Positions 14,164-64,000 of a stretch of DNA of 64,000 nt are shown piece after piece. Both the position numbers and the translations under genes were made by a program. The notes under the pieces are model-generated. The model did no database searches. It saw nothing but the letters and a program-made list of their open reading frames with translations, and was not told the DNA's origin. Origin of the DNA: Candidatus Magasanikbacteria bacterium CG10_big_fil_rev_8_21_14_0_10_36_32 (GTDB lineage: Bacteria; Patescibacteriota; Patescibacteriia; Magasanikbacterales; GWA2-37-8); the NCBI GenBank assembly GCA_002778465.1, contig PFBV01000003.1, positions 151,736 through 215,735 of the forward strand, given 5' to 3'. Numbering within the stretch: the first letter of the stretch is position 1; each line of letters opens with the position of its first letter.

Positions 14164-15165
14164 CTATTGGCTCACCCAATATTTTTGCAGAAGTTCGCTT
14201 CTGATTTTTTGCGTGTTTCCGTGTTTCAGCATCCCCAAATATGATTGTAATGTTTCCTCTTTTGGATTTTCTTTCACACTGGCAAACATCCTTCTTTTTG
14301 TCGCCCGCCGCAAAACGCGATGGTCGGGAAAATTAACCCAGCCGAGAAAATCCGCGCCGGAAGCGTAGGTTTGAATAAAAACTTTTTTATCGTGCAAAGA
14401 CAATTTCAGCCGTGTTTGTAAAAATTCGGCGATTCGTAAAATAATATTTTTAAGCCATTTTTTGTCCGCTGATAATATGGCAAAATCATCAGCGTAACGG
14501 ATATATTTTTTCGCGCGCAAATTATGTTTCATCCATTGGTCCAATTCATTCAAATAGACATTGGAAAATAATTGAGAAGTCAAATTACCCAGCGGTAAAC
14601 CGACACCGGTTTTGTTTTCGTCGGAATAACTCTCAATCACATTTTTTAACAGCCGCATAATATTTTTATTCGGGATATATTCATCTAAAATTTCCATCAA
14701 AATATTATGGTCAATGCTGGCGAAAAACTTGCGAATATCGCATTTTAATATCCAGCAAGTCCGGCTGTTATTGCGGCTTTCGCTTAAAGCCATCCGTTGA
14801 AACCGCTTGACCGCTTTGTGTGTGCCTTTATTCAGACGGCAAGAATACGAATCGGCGATGAATAACCGGTCAAAAAACGAATATAATATCCGATAAATGG
14901 CGTGATGCAACAAGCGATCGCGGACGCCGGCTTTGTGGATGTGGCGCGGCTTCGGGTCGCTGATATTAAACGCTTCGTAAGGCCCGTGCCGGTAATTTCC
15001 GCTTGCCAAATCTTCGTGAAGAGATATAATATTATCAGCTAGGTTGCGGCTGAATTCTAAAACATCAGGCTTGGATTTCTTGCCGACAACAAACTCGCCC
15101 CAGGCGAGAAATAAATTTTCAAATGAAATAATATCTTCAAAACTATGGTTCAGCTTGCTTTTCAT
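14164..15165 (-). CDS. DGR reverse transcriptase. The ORF track extends it to 15306, but the likely start is MKSKLNHSFEDIISFENLFLAWGEF, preceded by AGGA.
   Basis: RT domains with LPLGNLTSQLFSNVYLNELDQ (the DGR-specific I/LGxxxSQ motif that replaces QGxxxSP) and YADDFAILS. Size of about 333 aa is typical of DGR RTs. GC content is higher than the host background. Confidence 0.88.
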   Translation of the reverse strand: MKSKLNHSFEDIISFENLFLAWGEFVVGKKSKPDVLEFSRNLADNIISLHEDLASGNYRHGPYEAFNISDPKPRHIHKAGVRDRLLHHAIYRILYSFFDRLFIADSYSCRLNKGTHKAVKRFQRMALSESRNNSRTCWILKCDIRKFFASIDHNILMEILDEYIPNKNIMRLLKNVIESYSDENKTGVGLPLGNLTSQLFSNVYLNELDQWMKHNLRAKKYIRYADDFAILSADKKWLKNIILRIAEFLQTRLKLSLHDKKVFIQTYASGADFLGWVNFPDHRVLRRATKRRMFASVKENPKEETLQSYLGMLKHGNTQKIRSELLQKYWVSQ

Positions 15166-15185
15166 AATAATAATTCCTCTTATAA

Positions 15186-15195
15186 CCCCCCCCCC
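15186..15195. repeat. Homopolymeric C10 (G10 on the minus strand) tract between the divergent RT and avd-like starts
   Basis: tataaCCCCCCCCCCgacaa. It lies about 20 nt upstream of the RT start codon and about 8 nt upstream of the avd-like GTG start. Confidence 0.8.
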
Positions 15196-15203
15196 GACAA
15201 CCC

Positions 15204-15548
15204 GTGGTGATTGGCAAGGGTAAGGAAGCATACCAACTCTGGCTTGTTCTTCATAGAAACTTTCCCAAAACGGAACGTTTTGGTTTGGGTCAAAAAATTG
15301 ACACAATATTTTTAGAAATTTTAGAACTTGGTTATTCGGCCGGATATCTGCCGCCCGAACAGAAAACCGTCGCCTTGGGAAAAACCATCACTCGCTTGGA
15401 TATATTAAAATTTCTTTTTCAAATTGCATGGGAAAATAAACTGATTCCAAACAATAAATACATTATACTGTCTCAAAAACTGGAAGAAATCGGCCGCATG
15501 CTCGGCGGCTGGAAAAAGGGGCTTCTAAACAAAACTCCCGTAAATTAA
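15204..15548 (+). CDS. avd: Avd-like accessory protein (four-helix bundle, 23S rRNA intervening-sequence protein family), on the strand opposite to the RT and TR
   Basis: FPKTERFGLGQKID... and ...LSQKLEEIGRMLGGWKKGL match the 23S_rRNA_IVP/Avd family pattern (FPKxExxxL.sQlrRA ... eigkmL.gL). It occupies the TR-RT spacer. GTG start. Confidence 0.6.
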   Translation: MVIGKGKEAYQLWLVLHRNFPKTERFGLGQKIDTIFLEILELGYSAGYLPPEQKTVALGKTITRLDILKFLFQIAWENKLIPNNKYIILSQKLEEIGRMLGGWKKGLLNKTPVN

Positions 15549-15564
15549 ACGGGAGAAAACAACA

Positions 15565-15668
15565 GTCGCGAGAAAAGACACGGTTGCCAGCGTTCCACCT
15601 GTTCGGATTCTCAACCGAATTGGCGTTCACGTTCCAGCCGTCATCGTTCCGGTTTACGTTCACGGCGC
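15565..15668 (-). repeat. DGR template repeat (TR)
   Basis: A stretch of about 104 bp homologous to the 3' ends of both target genes. On the minus strand it reads ...AVNVNRNDDGWNVNANSVENPNRWNAGNRVFSR with many AAC codons. All 12 mismatches to VR1 fall at TR adenines. Confidence 0.85.
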
Positions 15669-15918
15669 CCGTTTTCACGCAAAAAATCATCCTTTGCACC
15701 ATTCCTTGAATACTCTTGGAATTGAATTTTATATGGGACATAAGAAGTCCTCTAATTTTTCGCGCCGATTCTTGTTTTTTTGAAAAATTTTTTTATACTC
15801 TCGCGCAAGGCATGCCCAGCACGACTCTCACAAAAAATATTTTAGATACTGTGTCACGCAAGCCGTAGCCGACGCGAAAAACACAATTTCCATTTTTATA
15901 ATAGCATAAAATTTTAGA

Positions 15919-15947
15919 TAAAAAAAGCCCCGCACAAGTGCGGGGCC
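15919..15947 (-). terminator. Intrinsic terminator of target gene 1, a conserved GC-rich hairpin also present downstream of target 2. It may also act as a DGR homing stem-loop/cruciform.
   Basis: Minus strand: GCCCCGCACTTGTGCGGGGC followed by TTTTTTT. A near-identical hairpin sits at 43985-44004. Confidence 0.65.
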
Positions 15948-16006
15948 GAAGAGCCAAAGGAACAAAGAGTTAAAGGGTCAAAAGGATAAGGATAAGGAAA
16001 CAAGAA

Positions 16007-16603
16007 TCAGCGAGAAAAGACACGGCTGCCAGCGCTCCACCTGTCCGGATCCTCAACCGAATTGGCGTGCACGTCCCAGCCGTCACCGTACCGGTGGACG
16101 TACACGGCGCGGAGCACTCCACTGACATCGCGAACATAGAAGATGTTCGTATAGCCGTTGGTGAGAAGTACGCCCGGCTCGCCGTTTGGCTGACAATTCA
16201 CCAGTTTGTAAACGCCGGCCATGGTGACTTCGGCCTTGGCTTCGCCGCCGAGGTCGTTGAGAATTTCGCAATCCAGAGAGACCTTGCTGAGGTCGTGGTG
16301 AGGACGCGAAACCGCCACATCCTTCGCTTCCTCGGTCTTGCCGTAGAACCAGGACTTAAAATTGTCGCCGATGTACAAGAACTTGATGGTGATGTTGGAC
16401 AGCTTGAAGTGGTCGGCGATGGCGAACTTGGTGACGGTGCCGACGATCAGGGCGGCGATCTGCTTGCGCAGGTCGGCGTCCTTGAGCACGCGCTCCATGT
16501 CGCTGTCATCCCCGCCGATGTCCAGCACGGCGTTGGCGATGGCCTTCATAAACCCGAAGGCCTTGCCCATCCCCTTCAGGAACTCACTCGTTTTCTTTGC
16601 CAT
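16007..16603 (-). CDS. DGR variable (target) protein 1, with the C-terminal VR spanning the last 33 codons (about 16008-16110)
   Basis: 198 aa. The C-terminus AVYVHRYGDGWDVHANSVEDPDRWSAGSRVFSR aligns to the TR with substitutions only at AAC/GAC adenines. The gene is GC-rich (about 55%), has an AAGGAG RBS, and is paralogous to the gene at 44066-44617. Confidence 0.85.
   Translation of the reverse strand: MAKKTSEFLKGMGKAFGFMKAIANAVLDIGGDDSDMERVLKDADLRKQIAALIVGTVTKFAIADHFKLSNITIKFLYIGDNFKSWFYGKTEEAKDVAVSRPHHDLSKVSLDCEILNDLGGEAKAEVTMAGVYKLVNCQPNGEPGVLLTNGYTNIFYVRDVSGVLRAVYVHRYGDGWDVHANSVEDPDRWSAGSRVFSR
16008..16110 (-). repeat. DGR variable repeat VR1
   Basis: The nucleotide alignment to the TR shows 12 differences, all at TR adenine positions on the coding strand. 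Confidence 0.85.
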
Positions 16604-16699
16604 GACACTTTCTCCTTGTTTTTGGTCTGCCTCTTGCTAACGCGACATGCGCCAGCCTATGGCTTGCCATTTTTAAAGAACATTACATTATAAGCGAAG

Positions 16700-16844
16700 C
16701 TTAAAATTACGGCGTTGCTCATATAATGAAAAATAAATTTTCCATTTATTCACAACTTGCCATTATAAGTGAAAATCTTGAAATGGCGGCGTTGTTCATA
16801 TATAGAAAACAAGGTTTTTCATCTATTCACAACTTGCCATTATA
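16700..16844. repeat. Tandem repeat, 2 copies of about 77 bp (about 80% identical), in the 5' leader of target gene 1
   Basis: Units cttaaaattacggcgttgctcatataatgaaaaataaattttccatttattcacaacttgccattat and cttgaaatggcggcgttgttcatatatagaaaacaaggtttttcatctattcacaacttgccattat. Each contains the near-palindrome AATGAAAAAT..ATTTTCCATT. Confidence 0.8.
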
Positions 16845-16867
16845 GCACATTTTGAAGGTTTTGTCAA
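16839..16867 (-). promoter_or_regulatory. Consensus sigma70 promoter (copy 2 of the module) driving the repeat-containing leader and target gene 1
   Basis: Minus strand: TTGACA, then AAACCTTCAAAATGTGC (17 nt), then TATAAT. Confidence 0.6.
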
Positions 16868-40716: not shown

Positions 40717-42792
40717 TTATTTCTGTTTTCCGGTAATGATATTTTGCGCTACATTATTCGGCACATCGGCATAATTGGCAAATTCCATTGTGGAACTGGC
40801 TCGGCCCTGTGACATATTGCGCAAAGAAGTGACATAACCAAACATGCTGGCTAACGGAACAATCGCTTTAACAACTTTCATTTGTCCGCGATCGGTCATT
40901 TCCTGAATTTGTCCTCGTTTGGAATTCAAATCACCAATCACATCACCCATAAATTGTTCCGGAGTCACTACTTCCACTTTCATAATCGGTTCCATAATTA
41001 CAGGATTGGCTTTTCGACAAGCGGCTTGAAACGCCATTGAACCGGCCATTTTGAAAGACATTTCGGATGAATCAACTTCATGATAAGAACCATCATAACA
41101 AGTAACCTTGATATCCACCACCGGATAACCAGCTTGAATACCGCGAGTTAAAGATTCTTTTACACCTTTTTCAATTGCCGGAATATATTCACGAGGAATA
41201 ACACCGCCTTTAACTTCATCAACAAACTCAAAACCCTTTCCTGGTTCTTGAGGTTCAACCCGCAACCAGCAATGACCATATTGTCCGCGACCGCCGGATT
41301 GTTTGATATATTTGCCTTCAGCTTCAGCTTCATTTCTTACAGTTTCTTTGTAAGCAACTTGCGGAGCACCGACATTCGCCTCAACTTTAAATTCGCGTTT
41401 CATGCGATCAACAATAATATCTAAATGCAACTCGCCCATACCGGCAATAATTGTCTGTAAAGTTTCTTCATCAGTATGAACTTTAAAAGTCGGATCTTCT
41501 TCTGCCAGTTTCTGCATAGCCATGCCGATTTTTTCCTGATCAGCTTTTGTTTTAGGTTCAATAGCAATAGAAATAACTGGTTCCGGAAATACAATTTTTT
41601 CCAAAACAATCGGATGATTAGGATCGCACAAAGTGTCACCGGTGATGGTATTTTTTAAACCGATGGCGGCGGCGATTTCTCCGGAATAAACTTCATTCAC
41701 ATCTTCACGATGATTAGCATGCATTCGAACAATTCTTCCTAAACGCTCTTTTTGTCCATTGGAAGAATTAAGCAAATAACTGCCAGCAGTTATCATGCCG
41801 GAATAAACACGGAAAAAAATCAATCGTCCGACAAACGGATCAGTGGCTACTTTAAAAGCTAGAGCCGCAAAAGGTTCTTCGTCAGAAGCTTGGCGACTTA
41901 CTTCAGCTTCAGTATCAGGATCAATACCTTTTACCGGCGGTAAATCAGTCGGAGACGGCAAATACCAAACAACTGAGTCTAACATCATTTGAACGCCAAT
42001 ATTTGACAACGCCGATCCGCAAAGAACCGGATAAATTTCACTTTTTAAAACTTGTTGGCGAATACCGGCTTTGATTTCTTCATTAGTTAAAGTTTCACCG
42101 TTTAAATACCGATTAGTATAATCATCGTTAACTTCTGAAACTTTTTCCACCAATTTTTTTCTATGTTCAATAACCAAATCTTTCATATCATCCGGAATCG
42201 GAATTTCAATGACATTTTCTCCGTTTTTACCTTCAAATTTAAAAGCTTTTTCTTCAATCAAATCAACTAAACCAGTAAAAGTTCCTTCAGCGCCGATTGG
42301 CAACTGAACGGCGTAAGCCTGATTAGACAAACGTTCTCGGATTGAAGCTAAACTCATATAAAAATCCGCGCCCATTTTATCCATCTTGTTAATAAAAGCG
42401 ACACGAGAAACATGATATTTGTCAGCCTGATGCCAAACCGTTTCTGATTGAGGTTCCACACCTTGTGAACCATCAAACACGGCTACCGCTCCGTCTAAAA
42501 CACGCAATGAGCGTTCTACTTCCACAGTAAAATCAACGTGTCCTGGAGTATCAATAATATTGATACGAAAACCTTTCCAAAAACAAGTGGTGGCGGCTGA
42601 AGTAATGGTAATTCCACGTTCTCTTTCCTGTTCCATCCAATCCATTTCCGCGGCTCCTTCATGGACTTCTCCAATTTTATGTTTTTTTCCGGTATAGAAT
42701 AAAACACGCTCGGTGGCAGTTGTTTTGCCGGCATCAATATGAGCCATGATACCGATATTACGTGTCTTGTCCAAAGTATATTCACGAGGCAT
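40717..42792 (-). CDS. fusA: Elongation factor G
   Basis: [21 protein letters not shown]. 691 aa. Confidence 0.95.
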
Positions 42793-42828
42793 ATAACGAT
42801 TTTGATTAAAAAGTTATAAAATTAAAAA

Positions 42829-43305
42829 TTATTTGGCAAAACGGGCGAAATGAGCAAAAGCTTTATTGGCTTCAGCCATACGATGAACATCATCTCTCTT
42901 TTTGATAGCATCACCGACTCCTTCAACTGTTTCCATTAAAACTTCCGCTAACTTTTCCGACATTTTTTTGCCTTTACGTCCGCGAGCCGCATCAATAATC
43001 CAACGGAAAGCCAAAGCGTTTTGGCGTTCTCCTCTAACAGGCAACGGAACTTGATAGTTGGCGCCACCAACGCGTCGTGAACGAACTTCAACTTGCGGCG
43101 AAATAAGCTGAATTGCTTCTTCAAAAATTTTAATCGGATCTTTTTTAGTAGTGACAGCAATTTGGTCCAAAGCATTATAAACAATGGTTTGGGCGGTTAT
43201 TTTTTTACCACCCATCATCACATAATTTATAAACTTGCCCAAAATGACATGTCCATATTTAGGATCAGGCTTCAAAACCCTTTTAATTACTTGTTTACCT
43301 CTCAT
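42829..43305 (-). CDS. rpsG: 30S ribosomal protein S7
   Basis: S7 family sequence in rpsL-rpsG-fusA order. Confidence 0.9.
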   Translation of the reverse strand: MRGKQVIKRVLKPDPKYGHVILGKFINYVMMGGKKITAQTIVYNALDQIAVTTKKDPIKIFEEAIQLISPQVEVRSRRVGGANYQVPLPVRGERQNALAFRWIIDAARGRKGKKMSEKLAEVLMETVEGVGDAIKKRDDVHRMAEANKAFAHFARFAK

Positions 43306-43347
43306 AATATTTTAAATTAGAAATTGGAAATTAGAAATTATTTTTTA

Positions 43348-43391
43348 GCTGAGTGGGATAAATGAAAATTTATTTTCATTTCCGAGCGAAC
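43348..43391. repeat. Palindromic element (second copy, inverted orientation) in the S12-S7 intergenic spacer
   Basis: Minus-strand reading: gttcgctcggaaatgaaaataaattttcatttatcccactcagc, near-identical in its core to 36472-36516. Confidence 0.6.
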
Positions 43392-43409
43392 AACAAAAAT
43401 ATGCTTTAT

Positions 43410-43838
43410 TTATTGTTTAACCGCTTTCGGTCTCTTGCTGCCATAAATACTGCGTCCGCGTCGACGAGATTCAATACCTTGAGTATCATAAACTCCGCGA
43501 ACGATATGATAACGAACACCCGGTAAATCTTTCACGCGACCGCCGCGCAACAAAACAATTGAGTGCTCCTGTAAATTATGTCCTTCACCCGGAATGTAAG
43601 CAATAACTTCCATACCATTGGACAAACGAACTTTTGCCACTTTTCTCAAAGCCGAATTCGGTTTCTTTGGTGTAGTGGTATAAACTTTAGTACAAACTCC
43701 GCGTTTAAAAGACGAACCCTTTGAAAGCACGGTTTTCTTGCGGTGTAAATTGTCGGTCATAAATTGCAAAGCAGGGGTTTTTGATTTAACCACCTTGTTT
43801 TTGCGACCTTTCCGCAATACCTGATTAATAGTAGGCAT
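43410..43838 (-). CDS. rpsL: 30S ribosomal protein S12
   Basis: [13 protein letters not shown]...[11 protein letters not shown]. Confidence 0.95.
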
Positions 43839-43977: not shown

Positions 43978-44006
43978 AGTGGATAAAAAGGCCCCGCATA
44001 AATGCG
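43978..44006 (-). terminator. Intrinsic terminator of target gene 2 (conserved GC hairpin)
   Basis: Minus strand: GCCCCGCATTTATGCGGGGC followed by CTTTTTAT. Confidence 0.6.
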
Positions 44007-44065
44007 GGGCCGAAGAGCCAAAGGAACAAAGGGTCAAAGAGTCAAAAAATATAAGGGAACAAGAA

Positions 44066-44617
44066 TCAGCAAGAGAATACGCGGAGGTCGGCGCACCACC
44101 TGCTCGGAAACCCAACCGAATGGGCGCGCACGTCCCAGCCGCCATCGAGCCGGTTCACATACACAGCGCGAAGCACCCTGTTGACATCGAGAACATAGAA
44201 AATGTTCGCATAGCCGTTGGTGAGAAGTACGCCCGCCTCGCCATTTGGCTGGATCTTCAAGAGCTCATAGATGCCGGACATAGTAACTTCGACCTTAGCT
44301 TTGCCGCCGAGGTCATCAATAATTTCGCAATCCAACGAAGCCGCCTTACAGAGGTCGTGGTGAGGATGCGGAACAACCAAATCCTTTACTTCTTCAGTCT
44401 TGCTGTAAAACCACAACTTGAAGTTGTCGCCGATATAACTGAACTTTACTGCGGCGTTGGACAGCGTGAAATTGTCGGCGACAACGAACTTATTGACAGC
44501 GGTTTCCAAAAATCCATCCGGATTCTTGAGGAACTTCTGAAAATTGGCGGACGTAACTCGTCCGGCCTCCACCTGCCTAAAAAATTCCTTCATCTGTTTG
44601 AAACTGGGTTGTAACAT
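44066..44617 (-). CDS. DGR variable (target) protein 2, a remote paralog, with VR2 at about 44067-44168. Likely start MLQPSFKQ (AGGAG RBS); the ORF track extends it to 44635.
   Basis: The C-terminal 130 aa are homologous to target 1. The final 33 codons (AVYVNRLDGGWDVRAHSVGFPSRWCADLRVFSC) align to the TR with about 20 substitutions at TR adenines plus about 8 non-adenine changes. GC-rich. Confidence 0.8.
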   Translation of the reverse strand: MLQPSFKQMKEFFRQVEAGRVTSANFQKFLKNPDGFLETAVNKFVVADNFTLSNAAVKFSYIGDNFKLWFYSKTEEVKDLVVPHPHHDLCKAASLDCEIIDDLGGKAKVEVTMSGIYELLKIQPNGEAGVLLTNGYANIFYVLDVNRVLRAVYVNRLDGGWDVRAHSVGFPSRWCADLRVFSC

Positions 44618-44720
44618 TCTATCATCTCCTTGCATCCGCAGTATTTAAACAATACATCCGACATCATTGCCAAACATACTGCCAATAAACCTGACGGACA
44701 CGGTAAAAAGAACCGATGTT

Positions 44721-44833: not shown

Positions 44834-45010
44834 TTACTTTTCCGGGGTGAAAATGGAGAGCGTGTAGCAACTCAGGCAGTTGCACTGAATGCGAGAAATG
44901 CGGATACATCTCGTTTTGCGGTTGATGCTGAAGTATCGATGAACCATATGAATTTTGGTTTCCTGACAAGTATCACACATAAGCCACTCAAACTTCATTT
45001 TAGAAATCAT
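44834..45010 (-). CDS. Putative small zinc-ribbon protein of 58 aa. The ORF track offers a longer 92-aa form that starts inside the tandem repeat.
   Basis: MKFEWLMCDTCQETKIH...RCIRISRIQCNC, i.e. C-x2-C ... C-x7-C-x-C. Lies between the repeat-bearing leader and target 2. Confidence 0.3.
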   Translation of the reverse strand: MISKMKFEWLMCDTCQETKIHMVHRYFSINRKTRCIRISRIQCNCLSCYTLSIFTPEK

Positions 45011-45076: not shown

Positions 45077-45226
45077 TTTATAAATAAAACTTGAAATTAC
45101 TGCGTTGCTCATATAATGAAAAATAAATTTTTCATCTATTCACAACTTGTGTGTTTATAAATAAAACTTGAAATTACTGCGTTGCTCATATAATGAAAAA
45201 TAAATTTTTCATCTATTCACAACTTG
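45077..45226. repeat. Tandem repeat, 2 near-identical copies of about 77 bp, same family as 16700-16844
   Basis: tttataaataaaacttgaaattactgcgttgctcatataatgaaaaataaatttttcatctattcacaacttg occurs twice. Confidence 0.85.
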
Positions 45227-45228
45227 AA

Positions 45229-45257
45229 ATTATAGCACATTTTTGGGTTTTTGTCAA
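45229..45257 (-). promoter_or_regulatory. Consensus sigma70 promoter (copy 4 of the module)
   Basis: Minus strand: TTGACA, then AAAACCCAAAAATGTGC (17 nt), then TATAAT. Confidence 0.6.
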
Positions 45258-62402: not shown

Positions 62403-63233
62403 TTAATCAACAAATTCAAGGAATTCGTTGATTTCGTCTTCAAGCTGATCATACGTCCGACTGCCGAGCATGTCGCCGTAACGCACTCCATCGTTGTAAA
62501 AAATGAAAAATGGGATTGATTCAAAACCAAACTGATCCCCCAATCCCTGAATTACTGTCGTTTCCACCTCAATAATGGTGATCAATTTTTCATCACGAAT
62601 ATATTCGTAATTTTCATCCAACAGCTCATCGCCATATTGAATGGAGGCAAGTTCCAATCGAGGTACCATATAATTACAAGGTGGACACCAAAAAGCGCCA
62701 AACTTAACCAAAACCGGAGTTGAATTATCCTCAAGCATTTCAATGAATTCTTCGTAAGTTTCGGGATGCAACACTTCTGATTCATAGCGATCAATCAAAA
62801 CTTGAGCGCTGATCGTTATATTATCTTCGGTTACATCATAACCATCAAAACTTAGTTCGGACATTTCTACACCATAACTGAAAAACTTAATAGTCGGCGC
62901 AACTGTCACATCAGCATATGAAAAAACTTTTGGCGCCGTATCATAACCTACCTTTGCCAACCACAGCCAAGGCAAATTGCTATTCGTTACGGTAGAAGCG
63001 GCGCTAAGGTAAGGATCCACATCATAATTTTCACTCCTAATGAAAATCACCAATACATTGCTCTGCTGAGTCACCCAGTCGTACTGATCTTGATTTTGAA
63101 TCTCAAAAATCTCTCCCTCGTTCCACGTGTAATGCAATTCGTTTTCATTTGAATTAGAATCGCAAGAACTGAAAAAACACGCCAACATCGCGACAAAAAA
63201 CATCAGGGGAAAAAACTTAAGTCCGTTTCTCAT
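62403..63233 (-). CDS. Thioredoxin-like lipoprotein (N-terminal unknown domain plus a C-terminal Trx fold with WCPPC)
   Basis: Signal peptide with lipobox (LACFFSSC). Active site WCPPC. Confidence 0.7.
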   Translation of the reverse strand: MRNGLKFFPLMFFVAMLACFFSSCDSNSNENELHYTWNEGEIFEIQNQDQYDWVTQQSNVLVIFIRSENYDVDPYLSAASTVTNSNLPWLWLAKVGYDTAPKVFSYADVTVAPTIKFFSYGVEMSELSFDGYDVTEDNITISAQVLIDRYESEVLHPETYEEFIEMLEDNSTPVLVKFGAFWCPPCNYMVPRLELASIQYGDELLDENYEYIRDEKLITIIEVETTVIQGLGDQFGFESIPFFIFYNDGVRYGDMLGSRTYDQLEDEINEFLEFVD

Positions 63234-63441
63234 CTGAATTCTCCTTTCGACCTATCTAAGGTCAAGGTGTTGTAAAAGAACAATTAAACCATTATAGACA
63301 TGGCTGTTGATTTTTGTCAAACATAACACTATTAAATAATCAAACTCAAATAAATTAATAAATTAATTTACCAATAAAAAACTCCCCATTCGCCTCCGTC
63401 AATTGACGAATAGCAAATAGGGAGCAAATCAAACAGATATA

Positions 63442-64000
63442 TTAATCTGAAAGACTATTGAGGAATGCATCAATATCAGATGCTAGTGTCTCATAATAAC
63501 GACTGCCGAGCATATCGCCGTAACGCACTCCATCGTTGTAAAAAACGAAAAATGGAATAGCGCTAAAACCATACGTCGCACCCATACTGGGAACTTCATC
63601 AACATCCACATCAATAATGGTAATCAACTTCTCTTCGCGAACCAAATCACCATTTTCATCCAAAAGATCATCTCCATATTCAATGGAAGCCAGCTCCAAT
63701 CGTGGAATCATGAAATTGCACGGTCCGCACCAAGTGGCGCCGAACTTGACCAAAATCGGATTGGTCGGATCTGACAGCATCGTCTCCAACTCGGAGGCTG
63801 TCTCCGCCTTAATCACATCCGCTTGGTAACGATCAATCAGAATTTGAGCATTGACTGCTACTTGTTCCGCGGAAGCTTCATCGATCAAATCCATTTCTGT
63901 CATTTCTACGCCGTAACTGAAAAACTTGAGGGTTGGTGCGGTTTCCACACCGGCATTTTCAAATACTTCCGGCGCGTCGCTCATTTCCACTTTTGCCAAC
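63442..64000 (-). CDS. Thioredoxin-like protein, a paralog of 62403-63233. The N-terminus lies beyond the window end.
   Basis: WCGPC active site. About 55% aa identity to the neighbouring paralog. A near-identical stretch of about 60 nt (cgactgccgagcat.tcgccgtaacgcactccatcgttgtaaaaaa) is shared at the DNA level. Confidence 0.7.
   Translation of the reverse strand, partial: LAKVEMSDAPEVFENAGVETAPTLKFFSYGVEMTEMDLIDEASAEQVAVNAQILIDRYQADVIKAETASELETMLSDPTNPILVKFGATWCGPCNFMIPRLELASIEYGDDLLDENGDLVREEKLITIIDVDVDEVPSMGATYGFSAIPFFVFYNDGVRYGDMLGSRYYETLASDIDAFLNSLSD

Follow-up and report, generated by a model that had tools for sequence, protein, structure and literature searches.

A probable chromosomal diversity-generating retroelement of Candidatus Magasanikbacteria and a covarying RNA that may prime copying of its template repeat

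The 64-kb stretch of a Candidatus Magasanikbacteria genome analysed here (hereafter, the window) contains a reverse transcriptase (RT) gene close to a pair of similar short repeats. This raises the question of whether the locus is a genuine diversity-generating retroelement (DGR) and, if so, what its sequence and that of its relatives can tell about cDNA priming and the recognition of the target. The cassette and its target gene comprise the following features:

14164-15165, minus strand: DGR reverse transcriptase gene, 333 amino acids, ATG at 15165, matching RVT_1
15204-15548, plus strand: avd accessory gene, divergent from the RT gene, matching Pfam bAvd
15568-15668, minus strand: template repeat (TR), 101 nt with 25 adenines and eight AAC codons
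16010-16110, minus strand: variable repeat VR1, which makes up the final 33 codons of target gene 1
16007-16603, minus strand: target gene 1, 198 amino acids, GC3 of 0.80
within 16604-16867, minus strand: 5′ leader of target gene 1, containing two copies of a tandem repeat at a distance of 77 nt
16839-16867, minus strand: promoter of target gene 1, consensus TTGACA-17-TATAAT

An earlier note on this DNA had proposed a resident chromosomal DGR, and this call was borne out for each feature that could be tested. The RT contains the predicted motifs LGNLTSQ and YADD, which aligned with IGSLTSQ and YMDD of the Bordetella phage DGR RT, bRT (8ub7), its best match among solved structures (E=3.7e-47); both enzymes show [I/L]GxxxSQ in motif 4 and the catalytic YxDD that mark the DGR clade. 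The adjacent gene, also correctly assigned to the Avd family, matched PF22296 (bAvd) with 56.2 bits (cut-off 40) and the NCBIfam model DivGenRetAVD (NF033474) with 69.3 bits, which is under the equivalog cut-off of 80. The TR and VR1 could be aligned exactly and without gaps over 101 nt (15568-15668 against 16010-16110). When the 11 mismatches were scored by template base, all were located at adenines (11/25 A sites versus 0/76 non-A sites; Fisher p=2.8e-8). The repeat and the restriction of its differences to template adenines had both been recognised previously, with a length of about 104 bp (15565-15668) and 12 differences; the exact length is 101 nt and the count is 11, because the twelfth difference (15566) is beyond the end of the ungapped homology. 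The alignment of the final 33 codons of this target gene to the TR was as described, and the translations agreed. Almost all TR adenines (24/25) occupied codon positions 1 or 2, and the variable columns among 53 target homologues matched A-containing TR codons. No Pfam domain was detected in target gene 1. In principle, the 25 TR adenines would allow about 1e14 protein variants.

These data bear directly on whether the RT might instead derive from a group II intron, a retron or a defence system, or belong to a phage-borne cassette, the TR/VR likeness being an ordinary duplication. The top NCBIfam model for the RT was indeed a group II intron RT/maturase, with 148 bits against a cut-off of 300. 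Among solved structures, however, bRT scored 164 bits and the next-best match, a group II intron RT, only 84 bits; an Avd gene adjoins, and neither an intron RNA nor an Rfam match was found at the locus. Furthermore, the flanking genes encode RelA/SpoT, ParB and ParA, as Pfam confirmed, and no phage or integrase genes are adjacent to the cassette, in line with what had been noted before. Such an origin is barely conceivable, and the confinement of the TR/VR1 mismatches to adenines rules it out. The window locus is very probably a real, intact chromosomal DGR with the standard CPR layout of target/VR, TR, opposite-strand avd and RT.

The cassette architecture had been described as unusual, a view that is rejected by the comparison with relatives and published DGRs. 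The TR is followed by a reverse-strand avd and then by the RT, without any other accessory gene, which is architecture B3, TR-(avd)-RT, as defined by Wu et al. 2018 (PMC5758913); in the same study, 90% of the DGRs from CPR bacteria had this architecture, with avd in the opposite orientation. Of 80 Patescibacteria loci collected by RT similarity (56-71% RT identity), 76 had upstream DNA, and the same layout, including the position and orientation of avd, was kept in all 76. Adenine-biased TR/VR pairs were found in about 60 related loci. Paul and colleagues are said to have already described CPR/Patescibacteria DGRs of architecture B3 in 2017. Several CPR genomes carried two DGRs, seen as locus pairs from single assemblies among the relatives. 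Because this layout is already known as standard in ultra-small CPR bacteria, the locus is ordinary as a class and represents one further example of DGRs, whose abundance in CPR bacteria is established.

The relatives also allowed the DNA around the TR to be examined comparatively, and the following RNA features were recognised:

15677-15765, minus strand: structured RNA domain just 5′ of the TR (RNAalifold, covariance model)
15754-15765 with 15677-15688, minus strand: helix P1
15735-15752, minus strand: hairpin P2
15722-15734, minus strand: conserved single strand between P2 and P3
15702-15721, minus strand: hairpin P3
15766-15781, minus strand: putative primer/joint strand AAAAAAACAAGAAUCG, its 5′ part being P0a
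15556-15567, minus strand: TR 3′ flank GACTGTTGTTTT (IMH*-like), in which TTGTTTT (15556-15562) is P0b
15527-15555, minus strand: post-TR hairpin (15535-15555, 7 bp) and U-run (15527-15534), from a terminator scan
15802-15877, minus strand: two hairpins with a conserved loop motif, 15854-15877 GGCTACGGCTT and 15802-15823 GGGCATGCCTT, in the 5′ part of the putative TR RNA
15898-15906, minus strand: putative extended -10-like promoter of the TR RNA TGCTATTAT, just after the target-gene terminator

RNAalifold applied to 49 loci predicted 23 pairs in the RNA domain, 20 of which showed compensatory changes. The proportion of paired cells was 96.4%, compared with 76.8% in shuffled and 32-52% in slid controls, and the covariation was 0.708 versus 0.30 after shuffling, with none of 500 shuffles as high. 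A covariance model of the domain gave 99.6 bits at the window locus and matched 22/33 held-out loci, each directly before the TR and nowhere else; no Rfam family reached its threshold at the domain. Outside the domain, AAAACAA (15772-15778) pairs with TTGTTTT (15556-15562) in a long-range helix, P0, with many compensatory variants in one register; its mean was 7.4 for cognate and 5.7 for non-cognate combinations (p=2e-11), a comparison that is, like all our cognate versus non-cognate tests, partly confounded by the shared ancestry of related loci. Within the putative primer/joint strand, the A at 15770 was at least 90% conserved.

On the 3′ side of the TR, a hairpin with a T-run was present within 80 nt in 54/62 loci and usually started 4-15 nt after the TR. 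The sequence of its stem differs among loci while the pairing is kept, and in the window its loop contains the avd stop codon. Avd-binding stem-loops have been reported just downstream of the TR, including in CPR DGRs (Handa et al., bioRxiv 10.1101/2023.10.23.563531), and the post-TR hairpin and U-run may end the TR RNA in the manner of an intrinsic terminator and are also a candidate site for Avd binding. Upstream, the motif GGYYAMGGYT occurred in 32/62 VR-TR spacers, at distances of about 200 and 150 nt from the TR and nearly always flanked by stems, against a background of 21 per 1.05 Mb. The pattern TGnTAnnnT was located within the first 200 nt of the spacer in 42/62 loci, and a strict sigma-70 scan called no promoter for either the TR RNA or the RT.

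The sequences following the VR were examined likewise, both after VR1 and in a second, remote target unit (43983-44635) within the window:

15998-16009, minus strand: IMH-like VR1 flank TGATTCTTGTTT, including the stop codon (16007-16009)
15947-15997, minus strand: pyrimidine-rich array of CTTNG-type motifs with an 8-nt period, between stop codon and terminator
15916-15947, minus strand: terminator of target gene 1, a GC-rich hairpin and T-run (terminator scan)
44066-44635, minus strand: target gene 2, 189 amino acids
44069-44169, minus strand: VR2, paralogous and 28 kb from the cassette
44057-44068, minus strand: IMH-like flank of target 2, identical to the VR1 flank at 11/12 nt
44011-44056, minus strand: CTTNG array of target 2, a strict pattern match
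43983-44012, minus strand: terminator hairpin of target 2

The VR flank (TGATTCTTGTTT) and the TR flank (GACTGTTGTTTT) are not identical, as is characteristic of IMH and IMH* in DGRs. The 9-bp GC-rich hairpin at 15926-15947 is an inverted repeat downstream of the VR, another DGR trait; the terminator hairpin of target gene 1 is the positional equivalent of the DGR inverted repeat downstream of the IMH, and a comparable hairpin followed 51/63 VRs. Between the two targets in the window, the terminator block (15916-15947 in target 1) was 90% identical, compared with 77-81% for coding DNA. CTTNG motifs numbered 2.5 per 75 nt after VRs but 0.34 after TRs and 0.31 in random windows, with spacing maxima at 8 and 16 nt. 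In the 64-kb window, the strict CTTNG pattern occurred only twice, following VR1 and VR2. The 8-nt-periodic CTTNG array after each VR is clade-wide and may be a further mark that is specific to targets.

The existence of a second, remote VR had also been claimed, and VR2 is present, with differences from the TR at 17/25 A sites and 8/76 non-A sites (p=6.7e-8); it is not a clean target because of these eight non-adenine differences. They occur at both edges, so that VR2 is at best a partial or past target. In the central 68 nt, by contrast with the edges, every non-adenine site equals the TR. Target gene 2 adjoins the rpsL operon. VR2 may therefore not be a current target of this TR at all, being either a decaying orphan paralogue or one served by a second, paralogous TR elsewhere. 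Six of its non-adenine differences are within the last 22 nt, beside the expected start of homing, and count against homing because a start at the 3′ boundary should erase them. Moreover, 6/8 are synonymous, the GC3 of target 2 is lower than that of target 1 (0.62 versus 0.80), as if drifting to the host composition, and the occurrence of two DGRs in several CPR genomes would accommodate a second TR. Against this, the 47 central non-A sites form an unbroken run of matches to the window TR (permutation p=0.002), whereas the adjacent paralogous DNA is 71-93% identical depending on codon phase (71% in one phase); VR2 keeps its IMH-like flank, CTTNG array and terminator hairpin; and the window contains no other TR copy. 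We consider it somewhat less than an even chance that VR2 is not a current target of the window TR.

The flank of VR1 (15998-16009) is complementary over 12 nt, with one G-U pair, to the RNA at 15766-15777. This relationship was clade-wide: the A-rich putative primer/joint strand, read as its reverse complement, gives the 3′ end of the VR together with its flank, and the exact complementary prefix averaged 5.8 nt in VR ends but 2.3 nt in TR ends (p=4e-8). About 10 joint types were found in which the primer/joint strand and the VR flank covary, and held-out loci agreed (e.g., with matches of 13 nt in L069 and 10 nt in L046). Two explanations for the IMH may be considered. The flank may serve to dock RNA-linked cDNA on the target sense strand by RNA:DNA pairing, or it may be rewritten from the RNA with each homing event. 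Either, if true, would provide a sequence-level rule by which DGRs recognise the target boundary.

A pathway can be proposed for these features by analogy with the Bordetella phage BPP-1 DGR. A TR RNA of about 365 nt (~15891 to 15527) would be transcribed from its own extended -10 promoter and end at the hairpin and U-run. The RT-Avd complex would bind P1-P3 and the 3′ hairpin, while P0 and a short helix between TR end and joint would put the TR 3′ end into the active site. Priming of the cDNA would occur in cis from a 2′-OH of the joint (around 15766-15770); copying would misincorporate at random opposite adenines and stop at P1. Subsequently, the RNA-linked cDNA could dock on the target sense strand via pairing between primer strand and VR flank (IMH) and replace VR1, and occasionally the centre of VR2. 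In this scheme, we infer the ends of the TR RNA, its promoter, the priming nucleotide and the protein contacts. The combined reading, in which the RNA of CPR B3 DGRs is a circularly permuted BPP-1 RNA (primer strand, stop duplex and RT-binding hairpins 5′ of the TR, ending at the Avd-type hairpin/terminator), the IMH is the reverse complement of the primer/joint and CTTNG is the target mark, appears to us evenly poised between right and wrong.

Alternatively, the RNA 5′ of the TR might act as a 5′ UTR or regulatory element or be an independent small RNA. The functional spacer would then lie 3′ of the TR as in BPP-1 and be read through the hairpin as avd antisense. The function of the domain is assigned purely by analogy, Handa et al. 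(bioRxiv 10.1101/2023.10.23.563531) place the Avd-type stem-loops of CPR DGRs downstream of the TR, and no promoter was recognised for the RT itself, which may therefore be transcribed by read-through from the TR. However, in all loci no more than about 8 nt separate the domain from the TR, the strand 5′ of the domain shows covariation with the TR 3′ flank and also with the VR flank, a hairpin and U-run follow the TR in most loci, and the order of elements corresponds to BPP-1 piece by piece. A role other than a priming scaffold is therefore improbable.

Current activity of the DGR is unproven from sequence. In the sole other assembly of the locus, from a sister JGI sample (L082), VR1 and TR were identical to those of the window despite two SNPs elsewhere in the target gene. 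Additionally, a scan of a metagenome collection for VR variants found none; the one contig returned was identical to the VR2 locus. Both results would be expected if the cassette were intact yet quiescent or rarely active, with VR1 effectively clonal, and thus a retained element instead of a working diversifier. In contrast, the parts are intact and evidently constrained (full-length RT and Avd, and an RNA domain with the high score given above), all non-A sites are identical between TR and VR1, and the divergence of 11/25 adenine sites in VR1 requires past homing; minority variants, moreover, are invisible in assembled consensus sequences. Quiescence is rather unlikely.

The comparative RNA and target-site results weigh more than the locus as one more DGR, because they make two open questions experimentally addressable, namely how cDNA is primed in DGRs with an inverted avd, and how the target 3′ boundary (IMH) is recognised and the cDNA integrated. 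The predicted ~365-nt RNA, with helices P0 and P1-P3 and a predicted branch region at 15766-15770, offers defined handles for such tests. The complementarity rule between primer strand and VR flank is simple, and exchanging the complementary sequences could redirect homing. Combined with the CTTNG array, the rule could also aid searches for remote targets of DGRs in CPR genomes. The whole related clade, and not the window locus alone, has these RNA and flank features. In the publications consulted, we found no description of the 5′ RNA, the flank-primer complementarity or the CTTNG array.

Among known systems, the window locus shares gene order, orientation and chromosomal location with the CPR B3 DGRs (Wu et al. 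2018, PMC5758913), as well as a small target of ~200 amino acids with a C-terminal VR and no recognisable domain. There is no architectural difference, apart from the additional remote and partly diverged target 28 kb away. DGRs with one TR and several VRs, and with targets away from the RT, are known, for example in Treponema denticola and Legionella. Multiple or remote targets were also reported by Wu et al. 2018 (PMC5758913); the window locus resembles these systems in having one TR and more than one VR and differs in the non-adenine differences at the edges of VR2.

Structured RNAs beside RT genes include the RT-10 motif, which corresponds to the BPP-1 spacer, and RT-16 (Weinberg et al. 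2017, PMC5737381). RT-16 (RF03019) and positions 15679-15764 of the window have in common an outer stem, the segment AUAAAAU-CA, an inner hairpin and GGU. The score of RT-16 at these positions was 25.7 bits (E about 0.1), its gathering threshold being 50. It was absent from 21 related loci (11 scanned at the gathering threshold and 10 at E<=0.5). The window RNA is therefore not a member of RT-16, and the resemblance may reflect distant homology or chance.

The Bordetella phage DGR BPP-1 resembles the window locus in having a homologous RT and an Avd; in both, TR and VR differ specifically at adenines, and the VR occupies the 3′ end of the target gene and is followed by a hairpin. It differs in gene order (mtd-avd-TR-brt), in residing in a phage and not in a bacterial chromosome, and in its target, since that of the window is not Mtd-like. 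Compared with the BPP-1 RNA (Handa et al., bioRxiv 10.1101/2023.10.23.563531), the window RNA appears to contain the same elements in circularly permuted order. The template:primer duplex, stop duplex, small hairpin, single strand, large hairpin and Avd-type hairpin appear to correspond between the two, although the stop duplex would be formed by the local helix P1 in the window locus and is formed by avd:Sp in BPP-1. The proposed order in the window RNA is primer strand, stop duplex, small hairpin, single strand, large hairpin, TR, template flank and Avd-type hairpin. The scaffold that lies 3′ of the TR in BPP-1 (spacer, Sp) would lie 5′ of it here, which would make the window RNA a circular permutation of its BPP-1 counterpart.

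The DGR-type reverse transcriptase (RT), the Avd homologue and the adenine-only differences between the template repeat (TR) and the first variable repeat (VR1) bear out an earlier note on this DNA, which had identified a diversity-generating retroelement (DGR). Its parts lie on the minus strand unless otherwise stated.

Features of the DGR and its target genes (window coordinates)
14164-15165, minus strand: ORF of a 333-aa RT
15204-15548, plus strand: Avd homologue
15527-15534, minus strand: U-run after the post-TR hairpin
15535-15555, minus strand: post-TR hairpin, with the avd stop codon in its loop
15556-15562 and 15772-15778, minus strand: TTGTTTT and AAAACAA, the two strands of helix P0
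15568-15668, minus strand: TR, 101 nt
15947-15997, minus strand: CTTNG array after VR1
15998-16009, minus strand: VR1 flank TGATTCTTGTTT, which contains the stop codon and pairs with RNA 15766-15777 along 12 nt
16010-16110, minus strand: VR1
16007-16603, minus strand: target gene 1, 198 aa
16696-16867 and 45086-45257, minus strand: leader modules, each a consensus promoter (TTGACA-17-TATAAT) plus two tandem copies 77 nt apart
44011-44056, minus strand: CTTNG array after VR2
44066-44635, minus strand: target gene 2, 189 aa
44069-44169, minus strand: VR2

The RT ORF matched Pfam RVT_1, and its best relative among solved structures was bRT, the RT of the Bordetella phage BPP-1 DGR (8ub7; E = 3.7e-47, 164 bits), followed by a group II intron RT at 84 bits. 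In the alignment with bRT, its LGNLTSQ and YADD motifs lay opposite IGSLTSQ and YMDD. The Avd homologue reached 56.2 bits with the Pfam bAvd model (cut-off 40) and 69.3 bits with the NCBIfam Avd model, under that model's cut-off of 80; a search with it against solved structures found no relative. The neighbours of the cassette encode RelA/SpoT, ParB and ParA, and GC skew, inspected for a replication origin near the DGR, showed no switch anywhere in the window. A promoter scan recognised none for the RT, and the best promoter-like site for avd (TTGCCA-16-TATAAT, 15003-15030, plus strand) falls within the RT ORF in antisense orientation. Transcription of avd and that of the TR RNA meet head-on at a single hairpin (15527-15555); since this has a U-run on the TR side only, transcription of avd might continue into the TR in antisense.

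An RT scan, restricted to one genome per species, returned 80 loci from Patescibacteria (CPR) with 56%-71% identity. In all 76 loci with upstream DNA, avd was located directly upstream of the RT on the opposite strand, and in approximately 60 of these an adenine-biased TR/VR pair lay just past the 3' end of avd and the target was upstream. This TR-(avd)-RT arrangement has been named architecture B3 and accounts for 90% of CPR DGRs (Wu et al., PMC5758913). Thus, the architecture, previously regarded as unusual, is the norm of the lineage, and the locus is a genuine, intact DGR, one more of the known CPR B3 kind. Its interest lies in the clade-wide inferences on the RNA and the target boundary, features for which a limited literature search found no earlier description.

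TR and VR1, delimited by repeat finding and exact alignment, differ at 11 positions, all of them TR adenines (11 of 25 adenine sites versus 0 of 76 others; Fisher p = 2.8e-8). The proposed restriction to adenines therefore held, whereas the proposed count of 12 did not: the twelfth difference lies past the end of ungapped homology. VR1 forms the final 33 codons of target gene 1. The TR contains 8 AAC codons and has 24 of its 25 adenines at codon positions 1 or 2; about 1e14 protein variants would be possible from these adenines. The target protein has 67 homologues of approximately 200 aa each, none of which carries a Pfam domain, and the variable columns of the family fall on the A-containing TR codons. 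CPR DGR targets without recognisable domains have been described (Wu et al., PMC5758913). Residues 1-55 of target 1 (MAKKTSEFLKGMGKAF...DADLRKQIA) are helical and 72%-74% identical to the N-termini of three proteins (P0060, P0063 and P0066) whose C-terminal domains are unlike that of target 1 and apparently have their own W-G-x-W-type variable end. Because proteins with different C-terminal domains share it, this N-terminus of approximately 55 aa may be a separable docking module common to different DGR-type targets.

As 11 adenine sites have changed, past homing is certain. Evidence of VR1 or TR turnover was absent from L082, a sister-sample contig (that of P0001) that spans positions 16767-15187: its VR1 and TR are identical to those of the window, and its two SNPs (16352 and 16306, one an R to S change) both fall in target gene 1 outside the VR. 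A metagenome scan for VR variants, with a 58-nt VR scaffold carrying N at adenine sites, returned only the contig L081; with 100% identity to the VR2 locus, this contig gives no population information.

Target gene 2 is a paralogue with 55% protein identity to target 1. Its VR2 differs from the TR at 17 of 25 adenine sites and 8 of 76 other sites (p = 6.7e-8). Six of these eight non-adenine differences are synonymous, and all eight are at the edges, two at the 5' end and six in the final 22 nt, whereas no difference from the TR occurs at any of the central 47 non-adenine sites (permutation p = 0.002); in the adjoining paralogous DNA, one codon phase is just 71% identical. Therefore, after the split of the paralogues, the centre of VR2 was rewritten from this TR or from a copy identical to it, and the 3' edge was not. 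Either VR2 is a former or incomplete target, or it depends on a different TR beyond the window; the window itself contains no further TR copy. Target gene 2 lies directly upstream of rpsL-rpsG-fusA (40717-43838) in the same orientation, and ribosomal protein genes have been reported inside or beside several CPR DGR cassettes (Wu et al., PMC5758913).

After almost all VRs, the stretch from the stop codon to the terminator hairpin holds 2-7 CTTNG motifs (CTTGG, CTTTG, CTTAG or CTTCG) with an 8-nt period. Their density was 2.5 per 75 nt after VRs, compared with 0.34 after TRs and 0.31 in random sequence, and at least three copies were found in 50% of VR flanks versus 0.4% of random windows. A search for a strict three-unit pattern gave just two matches in the 64-kb window, one behind VR1 and the other behind VR2; in related loci, the pattern lay within 110 nt past a listed VR in 21 of 30 cases and followed other VRs in at least two more. 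Judged by these counts, the array is highly specific to DGR targets in the clade and absent after TRs, and it could mark remote targets.

The target genes are also GC-rich relative to their own RT across approximately 60 loci (0.55 vs. 0.39). GC3 in the window is 0.80 for target 1, 0.62 for target 2, 0.46 for the RT, 0.39 for avd and 0.24-0.36 for host genes. A-to-N mutagenesis was rejected as the source of this composition, given that A and T are both low and coding-strand A equals or exceeds T. A leader module directly precedes target 1; at the second locus, a small Cys-rich ORF (44834-45007, minus strand; 57 aa with CxxC...CxC...C motifs) comes between the module and target 2. This ORF has a Shine-Dalgarno-like sequence, is followed by its own terminator-like hairpin and had no Pfam match. 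Each leader copy contains a near-palindrome (ATGAAAAAT-TT-ATTTTTCAT) that can also be read as an eight-codon mini-ORF (MKNLVFYI, MENLFFII or MKNLFFII), and no nucleotide homologues of these repeats were found in the related loci. The window also has, at its right end (62419-63975), a coding segment in two diverged tandem copies (73%-77% identity, offset of approximately 1040 nt), presumably paralogous genes.

Loci across the clade share a conserved spacer between the TR and the terminator of the target gene. An alignment of the 122 nt preceding the TR in 49 loci folds into three helices, P1 (12 bp), P2 (at least 4 bp) and P3 (5+2 bp), with compensatory changes in 20 of 23 pairs. Paired cells amounted to 96.4%, compared with 76.8% in shuffled and 32%-52% in slid controls, and the covariation score was 0.708 versus 0.30, a level reached in none of 500 shuffles. 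A covariance model from this alignment scored 99.6 bits at 15668-15796 and matched exactly once in 22 of the 33 held-out loci, on the RT strand and always just before the TR, with no further match in 294 kb. No Rfam family reached its gathering threshold in the window or in 11 related loci. RT-16, a motif from the RT-associated set of Weinberg et al. (PMC5737381), was rejected as the identity of this RNA: it was sub-threshold in the window (25.7/50 bits) and absent from 10 further related loci. Upstream of the P1-P3 domain are one or two hairpins whose loop is a conserved GGYYAMGGYT, and an extended -10-like box is located just past the target terminator, 5' of the TR RNA. In 54 of 62 loci, the TR is directly followed by a hairpin, whose sequence varies, and then by a U-run.

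The reverse complement of the joint strand, the putative A-rich primer strand 5' of P1 (15766-15781; columns 31-45 of the A3 alignment), matches the VR 3' end and flank but not the TR end. On average, the exact prefix was 5.8 nt long in VR ends versus 2.3 nt in TR ends, and prefixes of at least 6 nt occurred in 57% of cognate pairs versus 19% of non-cognate pairs (other joint type). These statistics, including the helix test of joint strand and VR flank (p = 4e-8), are inflated by the shared ancestry of the related loci, but the number of independent covarying types argues for a real relation: approximately ten joint sequences (CAAGTAG, CAATTCC, CAACTGG, CAAATAA, CGATTG, TGGCTGACCT and others) covary with their own VR flanks. 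Held-out loci agreed, with matches of 13 nt in L069 and 10 nt in L046. Furthermore, wherever the TR has GAAAC, the VR invariably has GCAAG, a difference that agrees with the RNA strand and not with random mutagenesis of adenines. In the window, the VR2 flank differs from the VR1 flank by one base, and the TR flank GACTGTTGTTTT pairs with the strand at 15766-15777 with two mismatches, one opposite A15770 (at least 90% conserved). We infer that IMH, the VR flank, is a perfect complement of the putative primer strand and that IMH*, the TR flank, has that sequence too, interrupted by a small internal loop at the putative priming site. RNA-linked cDNA might be docked on the target sense strand through pairing of primer strand and IMH; alternatively, the VR flank might be recopied from the RNA. 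In a divergent subtype (L001, L002 and L015), the strand before P1 reads ...CACACCCC instead of ACTTGG, and in L001 and L015 the VR ends in GGGGGTG (GATGGTG in the TR), following the reverse complement of the RNA strand and not the TR.

The A-rich strand just 5' of P1 also forms a long-range helix, P0, with the linker that immediately follows the TR. This helix keeps one register across loci while its sequence changes (AAATGAAGA/TCTTCATTT, AAATAAAGA/TCTTTATTT, AACGAAGA/TCTTCGTT, CATACGA/TCGTATG and AAAGATGAAA/TTTCATCTTT). Unconstrained RNAduplex runs of the upstream region against the TR flank gave no distinction between real and shuffled sequences; in the fixed-segment test used in its place, pairing averaged 7.4 for cognate and 5.7 for non-cognate combinations (p = 2e-11).

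The RNA can be compared with that of the BPP-1 DGR, whose elements and Sp numbering are taken from Handa et al. (bioRxiv 10.1101/2023.10.23.563531). That study examined at most 40 nt upstream of the TR, and the 5' domain was therefore beyond its view. In 5' to 3' order, the CPR primer strand resembles the BPP-1 primer strand (Sp53-56), the P1 5' strand the stop duplex (Sp59-70:avd), P2 the small hairpin (Sp71-78), the conserved 13-nt single strand the single-stranded thumb ring (Sp79-94), P3 the RT-binding stem-loop (Sp95-139) and the P1 3' strand the avd strand of the stop duplex; the TR and template flank correspond to their BPP-1 namesakes, and the post-TR hairpin to the Avd-binding stem-loop (Sp3-33). 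Because the order of elements is the same and the chain break is shifted, we infer by analogy that the CPR RNA is a circular permutation of the BPP-1 RNA.
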